A stretch of DNA of 25,955 nt, taken from positions 1-25,955 of the IMG/VR virus record IMGVR_UViG_2737471869_000024, one strand, 5' to 3'. The stretch is from a virus (taxonomy: Duplodnaviria > Heunggongvirae > Uroviricota > Caudoviricetes). The translations under genes were made by a program, and so were the position numbers. Shown piece by piece: positions 1 to 25,955 of this stretch. The notes under the pieces were generated by a model. That model did not search any database, had not been told where the DNA came from, and worked only from the letters and a program-made list of their open reading frames with translations. The stretch's first letter is position 1; each line of letters starts with the position of its first letter.

Positions 1-1842
1 ATGACAGTTACAACAAAGTTCAGAAATGACATTAATGGCCTAAGAGCTATAGCTGTTATAAGTGTTGTTTTGTTTCATTTTTCATCTTCTATAATTCCAG
101 GCGGATTTATTGGTGTAGACGTGTTTTTCGTCATATCTGGATACTTGATGACATCAATTATATTCAGAGGGATAGAATCTAATTCTTTTTCGGTTATTGA
201 CTTCCTGAAAGCAAGGGCGAGACGTATAGTTCCTGCTCTCGTTGCAGTTGTATTCCTTACACTGATTATTGGTTATATGTTCTTTGAGCCTATGACATTA
301 CAGATCATAGGAAAACATTCTGCGGCAAGTCTAACATTTATTTCCAATATTATTTATCAGTCTGAATCAGGTTATTTTGATGATACATCAAAGCAAAAAT
401 TTTTACTGCATACATGGTCGCTATCAGTTGAATGGCAATTCTATATAATTTACCCGATAGTGTTACTTGCACTGTCAAAGATATTGTCAATAAAAAATCT
501 TAAAATATTTGTTGTTGCGATTGCTGTTGTTTCTTTTGCATGGTGCATTTACATAACCAGAACTGATCCCGTGTCATCATACTTCAGCATCGCATCAAGA
601 GGTTGGGAAATGATGCTGGGAGGCATTGCTTTTCTGTTCCCGTTTAAAGGTAGCGATAAATCAAGACGAGTTTTGGAATCAGCAGGGCTAATATTGATCG
701 CGCTGTCTCTCGCGTTCATGAGCGAAAGCTTGGCGTGGCCTGGCTACATTGCGTTTATTCCAGTATTCGGGGCCTATATCTGCATTCTTGCTGACAATAA
801 AAGAACCATTCTTTCTGGTAAGATCATTGGAAAGCTTGGGCTCTGGTCCTATTCAATATACTTGATCCACTGGCCGGTAATCGTCTTTTGCGAGAAGACG
901 GGAATTGAGTTAAATATTTTCTGGTATCTGGCTGGTGTAGTGTCAGCCTCAGCACTACTTTATAGCCTTGTAGAGAAGCGTCGTGGTTATGGATGGGGAT
1001 TGCTTTTCTGTTATTGTGTATGTCTCGCAGCCGCTTTGTATGTCAATGTCGACGGGGTAAGTAGTCGCATTAAGAATCCTGATTACCATCTTAATAAAGA
1101 CCTGTTCCGCCGGGCTTACGAAGGACATTTATGGATGCAGCCTGGAGAGAATGTAGACTACTTCAACGCTACAGAAAAAGACTTTGACTACATCATACTT
1201 GGTGACAGCCATGCAAGACACTATTTCGCTTTCTTCAAACAAAGCGGTCTTAAAGTAGCATCGCTAGCTGCGGATGGTTGTAAAGTTACAAAGCATTTTA
1301 TGGGGCCGCTAAACTATTCTGAAAAACTCAGAAAGATTTGCGAAGGAAGATATAAGAAGGCCGTTGAATTCATTAATGCCCATCCTGGCAAGAAAGTCGT
1401 ATGGTTGCAAGCGTGGTATACTGGAAAGGTTGGAAACCCGCTAACGACTGACAATTCTTATAAAAATGATTTCATCAGTGAAATGAAATATTTTCTTGAT
1501 GATATTAAAGGCTCTAACAGCCAGATATATATTGTTGGTGATACCCAGGGAAGCAAGGAAATCATGTATCAATGCCTGGCATCACAAGACCTTCCTATTA
1601 ATAAATTATTCAGAAAATGCAATGAGTTTCAGGATTATATAGAGCCTGCAATGAATAGCAGATTTAAAATATTTGCTGAGCAATATCAAAAAGTTCATTT
1701 CGTTGACCCTAGCCCAGCAATATGCAGTGATGGCAAATGTAGAGTGGTTGATGGAGATATGCCTGTTTACACGGATAACTCTCATCTTACAAAGGTATGG
1801 TCAGTTAAGGTTGGTGAATATATCTTTAGCAAGATAAAGTAG
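1..1842 (+). CDS. O-antigen acyltransferase: N-terminal membrane acyltransferase-3 domain fused to C-terminal SGNH hydrolase domain (OafA/Oac-like lysogenic conversion enzyme)
   Basis: 613 aa ORF. The N-terminal ~350 aa are highly hydrophobic with multiple predicted TM helices and the acyltransferase-3 signature near the N-terminus (NGLRAIAVISVVLFHF). The C-terminal ~250 aa carry a GDSH block (ILGDSHARHY) and a distal D-x-x-H block (TDNSHLT), typical of SGNH hydrolases. The ATG is at window position 1, so no upstream context is visible and the start is unverified. A terminator hairpin follows directly. Confidence 0.8.
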   Translation: MTVTTKFRNDINGLRAIAVISVVLFHFSSSIIPGGFIGVDVFFVISGYLMTSIIFRGIESNSFSVIDFLKARARRIVPALVAVVFLTLIIGYMFFEPMTLQIIGKHSAASLTFISNIIYQSESGYFDDTSKQKFLLHTWSLSVEWQFYIIYPIVLLALSKILSIKNLKIFVVAIAVVSFAWCIYITRTDPVSSYFSIASRGWEMMLGGIAFLFPFKGSDKSRRVLESAGLILIALSLAFMSESLAWPGYIAFIPVFGAYICILADNKRTILSGKIIGKLGLWSYSIYLIHWPVIVFCEKTGIELNIFWYLAGVVSASALLYSLVEKRRGYGWGLLFCYCVCLAAALYVNVDGVSSRIKNPDYHLNKDLFRRAYEGHLWMQPGENVDYFNATEKDFDYIILGDSHARHYFAFFKQSGLKVASLAADGCKVTKHFMGPLNYSEKLRKICEGRYKKAVEFINAHPGKKVVWLQAWYTGKVGNPLTTDNSYKNDFISEMKYFLDDIKGSNSQIYIVGDTQGSKEIMYQCLASQDLPINKLFRKCNEFQDYIEPAMNSRFKIFAEQYQKVHFVDPSPAICSDGKCRVVDGDMPVYTDNSHLTKVWSVKVGEYIFSKIK

Positions 1843-1872: not shown

Positions 1873-3675
1873 TTATATCACCATATATCTGAAGCTTGCT
1901 CCGCCTGCAGCTGGAGAACCTGACTGCGTAGCAAGGACAAGACTTCCGTTTGATTGACTTAAAACATATGCATTTGCTGCTGCAGCTGAAGCATTTGCTG
2001 GGTGAATCACAACTTGTGAATAAGGTGTTATATTTTCATCAACTAGTGTTGCTGAAGCTACACCACTCAATCCATTGAATGACTTCATCACCATCTTTTC
2101 AGTTGCAGAAAGAAGGACGTTTCTTATTGTAAATGTACCTCCTCCAGTTGGGTTTAGCTTTGGAATGAGTGCACTTGTTACGGTTGTAAGATTGCAATTT
2201 GTCAGGACAAGATTATTTTGATAACTGGTAACCTGTGCAATACCTGAATTAACAACAGTGGCATTATTCACGGTGTTATCTGTAGCACCATCCGATTGGT
2301 TAACACCACTTTGTCCTGCAGCATTAATATAAGCTGAAAGAACTCTGGTATTTGCCGATCCTGCCGCAAAGTTAATACCGTTTTGCCCGCAAGTATTAAC
2401 ATAAACACTCTCAATTGTGGATCCTGTTGTTGGCAGTCCAGCATGTCCAAAGTTAATACCGTGGAAAAATTGCGTGTTGGTAGATATCAACTTTCCTGCC
2501 ATGCTCCAGCGGCAATCAAAACCAATGCCTGATGCTGATGCAAGATCCACAGATGCATAAAGCAAACGGTTATAATCACCACTAAATTGAATACCAGAAT
2601 AAGCGTCATCACCAGAAGCGCCTTGTGCATGCCCTAGTGCCGCAATACTTCTATTAGTTTTGTAAATATAAAACGCTTCATGCCCCCACGATTCAATCCG
2701 ATCAACGATAAACTTTGAGTAATGGCACTGATAGAAAAACAGGCAACCAGAGCCGTCATTGCGGATTCCATCTGGTGATGGTGCACTTATAAAAGTGCGA
2801 GGGTAGTAATGGTCATGGACATAATGAGCGTAAAAATCTACGTTCTGACACTCTGTCAGATAGACAAGATGGGTTCCAATCTGTCCTGATTGTCCTGCTT
2901 TATTACCATCAATCTCATTAATGTGAATTATTAGACCAGAGTTATTACCTGCTGCGTAAAGTAATCTGTCAAAGTCGACACATCCAGACGGTAATTTGAG
3001 CTTCCCCTTTACAATCACTTTTTTTGCTGAAGAAAGGTTGAGATTTTTTGCAACGAGAGTAAACCCTTCGGGAACAATCAGCATACCTGTATCGTCAATC
3101 ATCTTCTGAGCTGAGATTGATGATTCAACTTCGCTCACAGCTCCCCAATCTGCAACTGTAAGATTCTCTGCATTTTTTTCATGCTGAGTCCTTTTTACTG
3201 CTCCGGTATAAGGTTGAATAACAGGTATCATTGCATCTCCGTCGCTGATACCTGCACCAATCAAATCTGCAACAGTGTGACCAGGACAAAGACCTATTAA
3301 TGAGGCTCCATCATCACCAGACAACTCCTGTCTTAGCTGATCTGGATCATACTTCAACACGTTTGGATAGTTGAACTGCTGTGTACCATAAGCATCGTAC
3401 ACAGCCATAGAATGGCCTTGCACGGTAACGAATTTGGCAATCTGTCCGTTATATACAGGGTAACCAGCAGCGTTAATGATGATTGGTTGCGAAACAGGAA
3501 CGTGAGAGCCGTCTTCATTCTCCACATAAACCTGAATCTGGTTTTCAGGATTTACCGGGTCAGTGTCAATTTTACCGATATAAATTTTGCCATTGGCTAC
3601 GGCTTTAAAAGAACGCGCCATAGTGAAGAGTTGCGAAGGCATGCTTACCACAACATTTGCGGTGATATCTGTCAT
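1873..3675 (-). CDS. Tailspike protein (P22 gp9-type N-terminal head-binding domain fused to a different receptor-binding/O-antigen-cleaving beta-helix domain)
   Basis: 600 aa. The first ~110 residues ([46 protein letters not shown]...NVLKYDPDQ) closely match the P22 tailspike head-binding domain as I recall it. The remainder is Gly/Ser/Asn/Thr-rich and beta-helix-like but does not resemble the P22 receptor domain. GGAG RBS upstream. Last gene of the virion module. Confidence 0.9.
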
Positions 3676-20428: not shown

Positions 20429-20671
20429 TTATGCTCCGGTAGTGAACAGGTCTAACGATTCCTTCGATTTACGCACCGCTTCGATAGTGCGAGATGTGAA
20501 GTCTGGATTTGCACCGCCATCGTTGTAGTGCAACTTGAACAATTCCAGTTTCAGTTGGTCAGCACCAATGAATGCAAAAGCTTCCTCTGCCGCTGAATTG
20601 TTCTTAGATAGCAGTCGGTAAATTTCTAACTTGAATTTCTGTTCTTCAGTCATGGGAATAATCTCTGCCAT
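20429..20671 (-). CDS. Hypothetical small protein upstream of terminase
   Basis: 80 aa with GGAG RBS 6 nt upstream of the ATG; abuts the small terminase gene. Confidence 0.5.
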   Translation of the reverse strand: MAEIIPMTEEQKFKLEIYRLLSKNNSAAEEAFAFIGADQLKLELFKLHYNDGGANPDFTSRTIEAVRKSKESLDLFTTGA

Positions 20672-22695: not shown

Positions 22696-22771
22696 TGGTG
22701 CTGGTTAACGGACTTGAACCGCTACCCATTCGCTTACAAGGCGACTGCTCTACCATTGGAGCTAAACCAGC
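22696..22771 (-). tRNA. tRNA-Thr(UGU)-like gene
   Basis: Manual fold of the 76-nt minus-strand sequence GCTGGTTTAGCTCCAATGGTAGAGCAGTCGCCTTGTAAGCGAATGGGTAGCGGTTCAAGTCCGTTAACCAGCACCA. Perfect 7-bp acceptor stem, 4-bp D stem with GG in the loop, anticodon loop CTTGTAA, T-loop TTCAAGT and an encoded CCA. Confidence 0.55.
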
Positions 22772-22776
22772 ATATT

Positions 22777-22851
22777 TGGCGGGACAGCGTGGACTCGAAC
22801 CACGATAAGAAGGTTAACAGCCTTCCGTAATGACCTTTATACGACTGACCC
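22777..22851 (-). tRNA. tRNA-Asn(GUU)-like gene (imperfect)
   Basis: 75-nt minus-strand sequence with T-arm CGTGG-TTCGAGT-CCACG, anticodon arm GAAGG-CTGTTAA-CCTTC and a CCA end, but one mismatch in the acceptor stem and a weak D stem. Could be a degenerate tRNA. Confidence 0.4.
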
Positions 22852-22854
22852 AAA

Positions 22855-22914
22855 TAAAAAATCCCGAAACCGTTATGCAGGCTCTAACTATTACCTGCGA
22901 ACTGTTTCGGGATT
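22855..22914 (-). terminator. tR'-like terminator ending the short late leader (6S) RNA
   Basis: Long minus-strand hairpin (CCCGAAAC ... CAGG ... CCTG ... GTTTCGGG) followed by ATTTTTTAT, about 190 nt downstream of the PR'-like promoter. Confidence 0.65.
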
Positions 22915-23047
22915 GCATTTTACAGACCTCTCAGCCTGCGATGGTTGGAGTTCCAGACGATACGTCGAAGTGACCAACTAGGCGGAATCGGTAGTAAGCG
23001 CCGCCTCTTTTCATCTCACTACCACAACGAGCGAATTAACCCATCGT
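22915..23047 (-). ncRNA. Body of the lambda 6S-like late leader transcript (PR' start to tR')
   Basis: Inferred from the promoter at 23055..23083 and the terminator at 22855..22914. The full transcript would span about 23047 to 22855 (~190 nt), close to the 194-nt lambda 6S RNA. Confidence 0.5.
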
Positions 23048-23054
23048 TGAGTCA

Positions 23055-23083
23055 AATTTACCCAACTTTATTCAAAAAGTCAA
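23055..23083 (-). promoter_or_regulatory. PR'-like late promoter with overlapping Q-utilisation (qut) region
   Basis: Minus strand has TTGACT, a 17-bp spacer and TAAATT, located 43 bp downstream of the Q stop. Arrangement matches lambda PR'. Confidence 0.65.
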
Positions 23084-23125
23084 TATCATGCCGTTAATAT
23101 GTTGCCATCCGTGGCAATCATGCTG

Positions 23126-23749
23126 CTAACGTGTGACCGCATTCAAAATGTTGTCTGCAATTGACTCTTCCTTGTGGCATTGCACCACCAGAGCGTCATA
23201 CAGCGGCTTAACAGTGCGTGACCAGGTGGGTTGGGTAAGGTTTGGGATTAGCATCGTTACAGCGCGATATGCGGCGCTTGCTGGCATCCTGGAATAGCCG
23301 ACACCTTTGCATCTTCCGCATTCTTTCTCAACAACTCTCCCCCACTGCTCTGTTTTTGCTATATCAACCGCACGGCCTGTACCGTGACAATCTCTGCATC
23401 TTGCGCCCGGCGTCGCGGCACTACGGCAATAATCCGCATAAGCGAATGTTGCGAGCACTTGCAGTACCTTTGCCTTAGTATTTCCTTCAAGCTTTGCAAC
23501 GCCACGGTATTTCCCCGATACCTTGTGTGCAAATTGCATCAGATAGTTGATAGCCTTTTGTTTGTCATTCTGGCTGAGTTCGTGCTTACCACAGAATGCA
23601 GCCATTCCGAATCCGGCTTGTGATTGCGCCATCCCCATAGCAGCCATCACATCAGTACCGGAAAGAGAGTCAGAAGCCGTGGCCCGTGGTGAGTCGCTCA
23701 TCATCGGGCTTTTTGGTGAATGAAATTTGGCTACGCTTTCGAGTCTCAT
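23126..23749 (-). CDS. Q: Late-gene antiterminator Q
   Basis: 207 aa, [60 protein letters not shown]..., matching lambda Q as I recall it, including the Cys-rich zinc-binding region (CRDCHGTGR...CGRCKG). Confidence 0.95.
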
Positions 23750-24411
23750 GCGCCTTCTCCCTGTACCTGAATCAATGTGAGGTTTCCGCAGAACACTGCG
23801 CCGGTATCGATATACATCTGGTTGGCAAATTTGAGTGGTTTCACTGCTGGCGTATGACCAAAGATGAACGTGTCCGCGCCTTTAATTTCTTTCACGATCC
23901 CGTCTTGTGAGTTGCTGATTCGTTCGCGGTTCCAGATTACCTGCTGATGATCAACTGGCTTTCCGAACTCGTATTCATCACAGGGATAATCGGCGTGGCA
24001 GATGACGTATTTTTTATCTTTGCTCACCAGTTCGATGATTAACGGAAGTTCATCTGCTTTATGGGCAAGAGCTTTAGCCAGAATTTCTTTGTCGTAATCG
24101 AGATTAAAGAACCAGCCACCGCCATTAAGCAGCCAGTGATTGACGTTTCCGCGCTCTGATAAGCCATCAATCATCATTTGCTCATGGTTTCCACGTACAG
24201 CTCTGAACTAGGGGAATGTGATTAATTCCAGGCATTCAACGTTCTCTGCACCACGATCAACCAAATCGCCAACCGAGATAAGCAGGTCTTTTTTGGTGTC
24301 GAATCCTATCGTCTCCAGTTTTTTCATCAGGTTCGTGTAGCATCCGTGCAGATCGCCAACTACCCAAATATTTCGGTATTTGCTGCCATCAATTTTTTCG
24401 TAATAGCGCAT
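23746..24411 (-). pseudogene. Ser/Thr protein phosphatase (lambda PP / ORF221 type) interrupted by an in-frame amber codon
   Basis: Two adjacent same-frame ORFs: an N-terminal fragment [25 protein letters not shown]...ECLELITFP ending in TAG (24208..24210), and a C-terminal fragment resuming ...[24 protein letters not shown]... In lambda the interrupting codon is Trp (TGG). Together the span is exactly 221 codons plus stop. Confidence 0.85.
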
Positions 24412-24595
24412 CTCTTTCACTCCATCCGCGATGAACCATAAGAACGTCGTTGACGATGGCGTGCATTTTCCCGTCTTTATCATCAACGTATTTTCTGACC
24501 GTGCCGCGACTACATTTCAGTCTGCGTGCTACTTCTGTCTGGCTTCCGTATGCTTCAACGAGCATGTCTGGAATGGTTTTTACTGAGAACGTCAT
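24389..24595 (-). CDS. ninH: NinH
   Basis: 68 aa, [68 protein letters not shown], matching lambda NinH. Confidence 0.85.
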
Positions 24596-25203
24596 GCGGC
24601 CTCACTTCTGCTATTTCGCAGGTCTTTGAGTTTCTGCTGATACTCCGCCTTGATGGCCCTGCACTCTTCGACAGTCCAGCGATGGCGGCTATGGTTTGAT
24701 TCGATTTCGTCTACTGCTTCCTGCCCGATGCGGTTAATCAGTTCGACGCGATACGGAACGAGATTTCCGCTTTTATGTTGGTTGCACACCACGCATTGCT
24801 TGTGAATATTGCGTTCATCAAATCGGAGTTGAGGTGCCGCAGCAGTTGTCCGGTAATGTCCGGCATCCCACTGAGCAGACGTGAGCGTTCCGCACGAGAT
24901 ACATGGTAAGTCGCGGTCTCTTTCTCTGATGAAGGCGTTTACGGCTTGTTGGGCTTGTTTAATCCAGTAACTGCGGGGCTTTAAGGCGAGTTTTCGAATC
25001 TTAATTTTATCTTTCTGTTTCTGCTCCTCTCGTCGTCGTTTCTTCTCTGCTGCCTTTTCCGCTTTTTCGCGTTCTTTGCTTCGTCGTTCGAGTGCTATCT
25101 TGGTTCCACACTCTGGAGAGCACCACCACTGATTGGCGAATGCAGGGTGAAACCATTCCCGACATTCATCGTTTTTACATCGTCTTCGCGCTGGTTTAGC
25201 CAT
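24592..25203 (-). CDS. ninG: NinG (Rap recombination-associated endonuclease)
   Basis: 203 aa, [41 protein letters not shown]..., matching lambda NinG with its Cys-rich N-terminus. Confidence 0.9.
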
Positions 25204-25366
25204 CGTCTTCTTCCTCGTGCATCGAGCTATTCGGATCGCTCATCAGTTCTGCGCAGCAGTACTCACACACGTGAACTTCCAGCACATGCAGCTTCTGACC
25301 GCAATTAGCGCACGTTAAAGCCCGCTCGACGCTTTCTTGTTCGTAACTTCGATTTGGGTCAATCAC
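25196..25366 (-). CDS. ninF: NinF
   Basis: About 56 aa from a GTG at 25366 (GAGGAA RBS upstream; GTGA overlap with the ninE stop). C-terminus ...[46 protein letters not shown] matches lambda NinF. Start codon choice is uncertain. Confidence 0.7.
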
Positions 25367-25545
25367 CTTGTATTCCTCGCACGATGTCTTAGCCACCGGA
25401 TATCCCACAGGTGAGCCGTGTAGTTGAAGGTTTTTACGTCAGATTCTTTTGGGATTGGCTTGCGTTTATTTCTGGAGCGTTTCGTTGGAAGGTATTTGCA
25501 GTTTTCGCAGATGATGTCGGTGATACTTCGTCGCTGTCGTCTCAT
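25363..25545 (-). CDS. ninE: NinE
   Basis: 60 aa from the ATG at 25545 ([60 protein letters not shown]). ATGA overlap with the upstream methyltransferase stop. Confidence 0.8.
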
Positions 25546-25955
25546 GCTGCCCTCCTGACGCCCTGCCCGATCGCCATCAATGCCGCTTTGGATACGGTAG
25601 TAAACATCCGTCGAGGACTGATGAACGGTCGCCAAATCAGCAGCATGGAACCTTTGCTGTTTCCCTTCTTCTCCAGCCCTGTCGATGGTTCGATAAAATT
25701 AATCCGTCCATCAGTAATGATGCGAACTTCGTCAACACTCTCCAGAGCCTTGCTGAACCATCCGACAGACATATCCTCTGGCACAAGCATCACTATCGTC
25801 TGTCGCTGTTGTATGCACTGCTCAGCGGCTTTTTCCACCCACGGCCTGATATTGCTGTACGGTGGGTTATTCCAGATTGCACCGTGGCTTATCCACTCAG
25901 AATTTAGCGCGTCGTCGGCCTCAGTTAACCAGTGAGCGCACAGAGCATTTTTGTC
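25542..25955 (-). CDS. DNA N6-adenine methyltransferase (Dam-like), 5'-partial at window edge
   Basis: The minus-strand frame is open from the window edge to the stop at 25542. It contains the catalytic NPPY motif ([15 protein letters not shown]). The N-terminus lies beyond the window. Confidence 0.8.

Follow-up and report, generated by a model that had tools for sequence, protein, structure and literature searches.

Dcm methylates the inner cytosine of CCWGG motifs, and the 5-methylcytosine produced in this way deaminates to thymine. Coulondre and Miller reportedly located amber hotspots of lacI at Dcm cytosines in 1978, and Lieb is said to have described a hotspot in the cI gene of lambda, where the mutation am6 was used to define very-short-patch (VSP) repair. 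E. coli as a species is normally dcm+. The gene that concerns us here, ninI, is best known from phage lambda, where it encodes the Ser/Thr/Tyr phosphatase also called Nin221 (PDB 1G5B). Lambda ninI is nonessential for plaque formation when Q is supplied or when the polarity on Q is bypassed, and the entire nin region of this phage can be deleted (PMC10695390). For the motif, it has been shown that dcm is present in E. coli K-12 (PMC4924334) and that the T:G mismatch in CTWGG/CCWGG is a substrate of Vsr very-short-patch repair (PMC2715241).

Here, we analyzed a 25,955-nt stretch of viral DNA (hereafter the window), in which a lambda-type ninI gene is interrupted by an in-frame amber codon. With a probability of roughly 0.78, we read this locus as a genuine, heritable null allele of ninI, wherein a single C-to-T change at a Dcm site (position 24209, plus strand) has turned Trp68 into an amber codon.

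An interrupted ninI gene in a lambda-type nin module

The window represents a temperate E. coli phage or prophage of the P22-like (Lederbergvirus) type with a lambda-type nin-Q module, and the contigs related to it belong to E. coli as well. None of its large phage genes is broken. The best match for its left end, E. coli Tig228, carries a prophage remnant only, which lacks the nin region. The features of the window that matter here are the following, with the basis for the assignment in brackets where it was recorded:

1-1842: acyltransferase with AT3 and SGNH domains (domain match)
1873-3675: tailspike with a P22 head-binding domain (domain match)
Minus strand: late operon with terminase, 732-aa portal, scaffold, coat, gp4/10/26-type genes and ejection proteins
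Minus strand: lambda-type nin module with dam', ninE, ninF, ninG, ninH and ninI
25203..24592, minus strand: ninG
24389..24595, minus strand: ninH, the upstream neighbor of ninI (PF06322, 145.9 bits)
23746..24411, minus strand: ninI, homologue of lambda Nin221/the lambda Ser/Thr/Tyr phosphatase, pseudogene by prediction (translation, 221 codons plus the natural stop)
24211..24411, minus strand: N-terminal fragment, residues 1-67, which keeps GDLHG (19-23) and GDLVDRG (48-54) (translation)
24208..24210, minus strand: in-frame amber TAG in place of Trp68 (TGG) (translation plus alignments with lambda and homologues)
23749..24207, minus strand: remainder, codons 69-221, predicted to be untranslated, which encodes GNHE (74-77), H139 and H186 (translation)
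23126..23749, minus strand: lambda-type antiterminator Q, the downstream neighbor of ninI (PF03589, 192.3 bits)
22851..22696, minus strand: tRNA-Asn(GTT) and tRNA-Thr(TGT)
After the tRNAs: lysis genes

Translation of 24411..23746 begins with MRYYEK, finishes with QGEGA* and contains one internal stop only, at codon 68. Around this codon lambda NinI reads TTCCCCTGGTTC, with W68 encoded by TGG, while the window reads TTCCCCTAGTTC. Compared to lambda, the gene differs at 18 of 666 nucleotides (97.3% nucleotide identity), comprising 12 synonymous changes, the replacements N30K, D33E, N39T, F144C and N170D, and W68*, such that 215 of the 220 comparable residues match. All five amino acid differences represent the majority state among natural alleles. 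In the aligned ninI homologues codon 68 is TGG in 118 out of 119 cases and TAG in the one remaining, that of E. coli PE164. If W68 is restored, the protein matches 1G5B with E = 1.4e-150 over residues 1-221, and the Metallophos profile PF00149 with 63.5 bits (cutoff 21.5). Given this match of the restored protein and the TGG codon of nearly all homologues, the split reading frame is not a chance pattern and can be regarded, by its sequence, as a genuine broken phosphatase homologue.

The order ninH-ninI-Q and the gene overlaps are the same as in lambda: the start of ninI overlaps ninH by 23 nt, and the ninI stop and the Q start share the sequence ATGA. Two hallmarks of the lambda-type NinI proteins of the PPP family are therefore present, namely full-length homology and a nin-region location flanked by ninH and Q, while a reading frame for one uninterrupted polypeptide carrying motifs I-III plus the distal His ligands is absent, given the TAG at codon 68. 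What could be made from the two sides of the stop matches little of the family profile. The 67-residue fragment covers only positions 2-54 of the 191 positions of the Metallophos profile, and a possible restart ORF of 143 aa, from M79 (24177), gave no Pfam match when searched alone. Since the TAG ends the product ahead of GNHE, H139 and H186, and since the 143-aa ORF carries no Pfam domain, the window's ninI is predicted to be a pseudogene of the lambda-type phosphatase family and no functional member of it.

A sequence-only reading of the window had already described two intact, in-frame halves of a 221-codon gene that are parted by a single TAG at a codon where lambda has Trp (TGG), which agrees with both the translation and the alignments. 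Other parts of that description need to be adjusted. The stop had been placed immediately before GNHE; it does lie upstream of this motif, but the adjacency is only rough, as it precedes GNHE by 5 codons. The gene had been given an end coordinate of 24486, whereas on the minus strand it begins at 24411, and 24486 marks where a mechanical TTG ORF extending into ninH begins. Lastly, the nin region had been called otherwise identical to lambda, while ninI is 97.3% and the 2.2-kb ninG-Q block 97.2% identical to it; for the same block, identity reaches at most 98.0% with any phage record and 98.5% with the best complete E. coli genome.

Copies of the amber allele and its intact sisters

Three NCBI draft assemblies (GCA_025600215.1, GCA_000819375.1 and GCA_014630935.1) contain an identical ninI with the TAG, and the second of them may be the window's own source. 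These drafts were found via exact look-ups of the neighboring NinG and NinH proteins, and they leave the stretch between ninH and Q without a protein call. The contigs JANJYO010000032.1 (GCA_025600215.1) and JWZR01000039.1 (GCA_000819375.1) match the window with 100% identity across 4,364 nt, TAG included; the end of the window lies 2 nt from that of the latter contig, hence its possible role as the source. In DABTMJ010000053.1 (GCA_014630935.1) the ninG-ninH-ninI(TAG) block is the same as in the window, and each of its 25 mismatches lies from window position 23729 downwards, that is, in or beyond Q, so that this contig carries a different Q allele. Given its occurrence in several assemblies, including this different-Q recombinant, the TAG allele is judged to have been sequenced independently more than once and to sit in two or more recombinant backgrounds.

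For the two fragments of 143 aa and 67 aa, exact look-ups were tried as well and returned look-alikes only, none of them with the TAG: contig-end truncations (L005-L009), a run of Ns (L002) and deletions (L003 and L004). These look-ups missed the NCBI drafts, where the pseudogene has no called protein.

Intact sister alleles were found at a distance of one base. For L159 (GCA_032180165.1), L164 and L167, the latter two being Logan contigs of SRR26639498 and SRR26639348 (with the same contigs in 10 and 8 runs, respectively), ninI is the same as in the window at 665 of 666 nt, and the sole difference is at nt 203, where they carry G and the window carries A. In L164, this is the one mismatch across 1,839 nt. 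All three sisters have TGG at codon 68 and a called 221-aa Metallophos protein, and 38 contigs of E. coli and further Enterobacteriaceae encode the protein in exactly this W68 form. A203 is the only private nucleotide of the window's ninI, which, by this comparison, is a one-step pseudogene that appears free of further decay. Comparing other copies of the prophage had been proposed in the sequence-only reading as a check, and it brought up TAG copies and TGG sisters one base apart, in line with the single-base natural inactivation considered there. That this inactivation was very recent is true insofar as no further decay has followed, but the allele has existed long enough to reach several isolates and one recombinant.

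A Dcm site at codon 68

Codon 68 and a nearby stretch of ninI contain the following motifs:

24208..24212, plus strand: mutated Dcm site, CTAGG (CCAGG in homologues; CCTGG on the gene strand) (homologue consensus)
24228..24232, plus strand: second Dcm site, intact CCAGG, gene nt 180-184 (sequence)

The changed base, 24209, is T on the plus strand, and the ancestral C is the inner cytosine of the motif, corresponding to a G-to-A change at gene nt 203. Of 123 homologues, 122 have C at this position and the remaining one has T, and the ancestral context on the gene strand is CC-CCTGG-TTC. Both features expected of a Dcm mutation, an ancestral CCWGG and a C-to-T change at its inner cytosine, are therefore found at this site. 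The restored ninI has two Dcm sites, equivalent to four methylated positions. The gene allows 95 different nonsense substitutions, including 19 transitions, and the observed change is the only one of them to affect a Dcm-methylated position; it is its Dcm-site context that would explain why codon 68 is the one hit. When the whole window was compared with the homologue consensus, 3 of 24 Dcm sites were altered, and the site at codon 68 was the only one altered by C-to-T at the methylated cytosine. The sequence-only reading had overlooked the Dcm-site context.

We propose the following path to the null allele. Dcm would methylate the inner cytosine of CCAGG/CCTGG, and spontaneous deamination of this 5-methylcytosine would leave a T:G mismatch, which would escape Vsr very-short-patch repair and then be fixed by replication. 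The outcome would be a change of CCAGG/CCTGG to CTAGG/CCTAG and of TGG to TAG. Such an escape from repair is the classical origin of amber hotspots like those of lacI and lambda cI. The deamination step itself is invisible in the sequence, and a plain replication error, G to A at the same base, has an identical outcome.

A Dcm motif is also the kind of place where an error of sequencing or basecalling might be suspected, such as a nanopore consensus error. Indeed, with older ONT models about 70% of the consensus errors were within Dcm motifs (PMC6591954). Moreover, the exact TAG pattern (47-mer and 24-mer) was not found in GTDB species representatives, nor was the exact TAG pattern found in IMG/VR or in JGI metagenome contigs. 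Against an artefact, the TAG stands in three NCBI assemblies, one of them the different-Q recombinant, as well as in PE164, and the nonreproducibility that an artefact should show was thus not observed. Furthermore, no other Dcm site in the window has a C-to-T at the methylated cytosine, and the large genes are unbroken, with no hint of an assembly prone to homopolymer errors. A systematic basecalling error at Dcm sites was rejected after the window-wide Dcm comparison and after counting motifs in the host flank of PE164 (76 CCWGG versus 1 CTAGG/CCTAG). We give an artefact next to no chance, and the sequencing error that the sequence-only reading had listed is refuted for practical purposes.

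The second TAG at codon 68, that of E. coli PE164 (NZ_CP114128.1), lies in LZG51_RS07500, which is annotated with an 'internal stop', and no other was found among the 1,799 ninI places of 5,426 complete E. coli genomes. The PE164 TAG came from a megablast with an SNP-centered 55-mer, which alleles with extra variants up to 27 nt from the site could escape; the same type of search gave no TAG allele among 73 phage records with ninI. The lambdoid prophage at the PE164 locus is heavily degraded, lacks ninH and carries nleA/nleG effector genes. Its ninI differs from that of the window at 15 of 656 other sites (21 of 666 if the 5' end is included) and is the same at all 656 sites as in eight IMG/VR viral contigs that carry TGG. 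There are therefore two TAG haplotypes, each with its own TGG twin, as expected for recurrence at a hotspot, although two events carry modest statistical weight only. The chance that a second event would fall on the same site is about 1/95 if all nonsense substitutions are considered, or 1/19 for transitions. With an intact twin for either TAG allele, the most economical reading would be that one base was hit twice independently.

Alternatively, the nonsense mutation could be real but due to an ordinary replication error, or could have a single origin, with the TAG having reached PE164 through short-patch gene conversion. Among spontaneous substitutions, G:C to A:T transitions are the most frequent, and no difference separates the two TAG alleles in the 86 nt around the site (between the differing gene nt 174 and 261), such that a tract of less than 87 nt could in principle move the TAG. 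The otherwise identical TGG twin of each TAG allele nevertheless fits two single-step events better, and VSP repair of a T:G heteroduplex would restore C and not spread T (PMC2715241). An ordinary replication error would, for its part, have had to strike the one nonsense substitution in 95 that lies on a 5-methylcytosine. We therefore regard replication error or a single origin as unlikely.

Consequences of the stop and comparison with known systems

In the null allele, translation would stop after 67 residues, so that D20, H22, D49 and R53 would be kept and N75, H76, H139 and H186 lost. Without these last four residues the binuclear metal center would not form, and the Mn-dependent phosphatase activity is predicted to be lost. 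The 67-residue product is thus almost certainly inactive as a phosphatase, as far as its sequence can tell.

This prediction would not hold if the amber codon was read by a suppressor tRNA (supE/supF-like), by programmed readthrough or, at a low level, by natural readthrough, giving rise to the full-length phosphatase, as had been suggested in the sequence-only reading for an amber-suppressor host. The 153 codons downstream of the stop are perfectly intact, and the allele has persisted in several isolates; however, a young pseudogene would be equally intact, and with TGG in 118 of 119 homologues there is no conserved readthrough site. No amber-suppressor tRNA was found in the 25,955-nt window, whose only tRNAs are Thr(TGT) and Asn(GTT), and no other coding-strand gene of the window is split by an in-frame TAG. 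A phage-borne suppressor tRNA was rejected on account of these two tRNAs. Natural amber suppressors are, in addition, rare in wild E. coli. Within the window nothing speaks for conditional expression, and we consider it scarcely credible.

The loss of the phosphatase would probably be of little consequence to the phage. In its closest structural relatives, Kapi1 and phiv205-1, ninH leads directly to Q without any ninI, and the gene is also missing from 6 of 10 contigs with an identical Q protein among the matches listed, out of roughly 30,000 collection blocks that encode this Q. Based on these absences, ninI is best described as an accessory, mosaic gene. As Q has its own Shine-Dalgarno sequence, GGGAGAAGG, upstream of its ATG, the phage with the TAG allele is probably still viable. 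Late gene expression should survive by means of this Shine-Dalgarno sequence and of N-antiterminated transcription from pR, and the loss of ninI would be tolerated, as the gene is dispensable for lytic growth and missing from many related prophages.

The frequency of intact and broken copies is in line with such a status. The wild-type (TGG) pattern was present in at least 120 IMG/VR contigs, and 109 of 111 full-length IMG/VR copies of ninI were intact, in a set that was retrieved by a TGG-containing pattern and in which TAG alleles are therefore uncountable. Other lesions of ninI comprise a frameshift (L017), a 1-nt deletion (L004) and a 117-nt deletion (L003). Taken as a sequence-based profile, these frequencies fit the sporadic decay of a weakly selected accessory gene and not a conserved feature.

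Recurrence could also mean that the loss is adaptive, with NinI inactivation benefiting the lysogen or the phage, and the null allele being selected and recurring for that reason. The two independent TAG events, the independent lesions in L017, L004 and L003 and the many related prophages without ninI would all be compatible with this idea. On the other hand, 109 of the 111 full-length copies are intact (with the above-mentioned restriction that this TGG-pattern set cannot count TAG), and one TAG in 1,799 ninI places is the frequency that sporadic decay would be expected to produce. Adaptive loss is therefore, in our opinion, quite improbable. A further speculation, which we hold to be highly improbable, is that ninI might be turned off time and again in lysogens through a built-in 'soft spot', the Dcm site at Pro67-Trp68, with loss of the enzyme being favored in some hosts. 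During recombination, VSP repair would then bias heteroduplexes back toward the intact allele, so that a methylation-driven on/off polymorphism of a phage signaling enzyme would result; in a milder version, a leaky amber codon might tune the dosage of NinI or the translation of Q.

What we favor instead is simpler. The locus is an ordinary young pseudogene, all elements of which are already known, with no new biological feature. The nonsense mutation is of the textbook kind, it affects an accessory gene that a temperate phage can do without, and its biological weight is small. For annotation, the locus should be given as a ninI pseudogene and not as a pair of small ORFs (67 and 143 aa). It also serves as a clean example from nature of how the Dcm/5-methylcytosine amber hotspot recurs in prophage genes, and it suggests that, whenever in-frame CTAGG/CCTAG stops are met in enterobacterial genes, the relatives should be compared for CCWGG before recoding or suppressors are considered.

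Compared to lambda NinI (Nin221, PDB 1G5B), the window has the same gene at the same position between ninH and Q, and all motifs as well as H139 and H186 are encoded in both; the window differs by the TAG at codon 68, which would leave residues 1-67 alone producible, and by the location of its ninI within a P22-like virion module, while that of lambda lies within a lambda-like one. The sister alleles (GCA_032180165.1 and the Logan contigs), alike at 665/666 nt, stand closest to the window and are set apart by TGG versus TAG. The ninI pseudogene of PE164 shares with the window the TAG at codon 68 and the motif, but it is a different allele with a probably independent origin. Finally, the reported hotspots of lacI (CCAGG to CTAGG) and lambda cI (am6) involve the same motif and the same inner-cytosine change to amber as seen in this lambdoid gene in E. 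coli. Unlike those laboratory-selected mutants, the window's TAG is a natural allele in wild isolates, and, unlike the lacI and cI hotspots, it hits a Trp codon via the opposite strand, with a dependence on Dcm and Vsr that we infer for the window.

The amber ninI allele and other ninI lesions

Aligned to window positions 25937..22854, the draft E. coli contig L147 (GCA_014630935.1), which carries the same TAG in ninI, is free of mismatches from ninG through ninI, and all 25 of its mismatches lie at window position 23729 or lower, that is in Q and beyond. Recombination has thus left a junction where ninI meets Q, and it brings the amber ninI allele into a second Q background.

A TAG-bearing ninI on a different allele occurs in E. 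coli PE164, where its host element is a decayed lambdoid prophage (NZ_CP114128.1, 1546347-1586401). In this prophage also lie nleA and nleG, which code for type III effectors; an IS3 element has inserted into it, and several of its phage genes are truncated or frameshifted. Further, independent ninI lesions were found in two contigs:

L003, 1-200: ENA metagenome contig with a 117-nt internal ninI deletion (codons ~39-78)
L017: IMG/VR contig with a ninI frameshift leading to a stop at codon 158

The deletion in L003 is flanked by short AACAAA/GCAAA repeats.

Damage at the ninI Dcm pentamer

The ninI Dcm pentamer (CCTGG on the ninI strand) is a break point or damaged spot in several unrelated metagenome contigs:

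L008 and L009: contig ends at ...CCCCT, within the pentamer
L007: contig ends at ...CCCCTG, within the pentamer
L002, 5687-5712: run of 26 Ns over the pentamer, 7 nt above the expected length
L004, near nt 83: CCTGG shortened to CC-GG

These breaks and damage, which are partly a selection effect because the contigs were found by exact-fragment look-up, may hint at within-sample polymorphism at this site.

Other genes of the window

Four further features were located in the window:

1-1842, plus strand: AT3+SGNH acyltransferase of the O-antigen-modifying type, convergent with the tailspike gene
1873-3675, minus strand: tailspike of 600 aa with a P22 head-binding domain
22696-22851, minus strand: tRNA-Thr(TGT) and tRNA-Asn(GTT) pair, between Q and the holin gene
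25542-25955, minus strand: phage Dam, an N6-adenine methyltransferase (PF05869), cut by the window end

Identical copies of the acyltransferase protein are on record in 211 collection blocks. The E. coli prophages bearing it are integrated at three or more distinct places in the chromosome, among them one beside intS and one beside a Peptidase_S11 (PBP5-type) carboxypeptidase gene. A prophage remnant in E. coli Tig228 also carries the acyltransferase, at 99.1% identity. Sister contigs have the full-length Dam gene, which encodes 175 aa, in the interval from ninB to ninE.

Relative to a handful of aligned homologues, window-private substitutions are tightly clustered at 20458-20632, close to the small terminase/DUF2560 region; this cluster is probably a mosaic patch derived from an unsampled relative.

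Neither tRNA of the window pair qualifies as a suppressor tRNA, and the same tRNA-Thr(TGT)/tRNA-Asn(GTT) pair is annotated in phage Kapi1.
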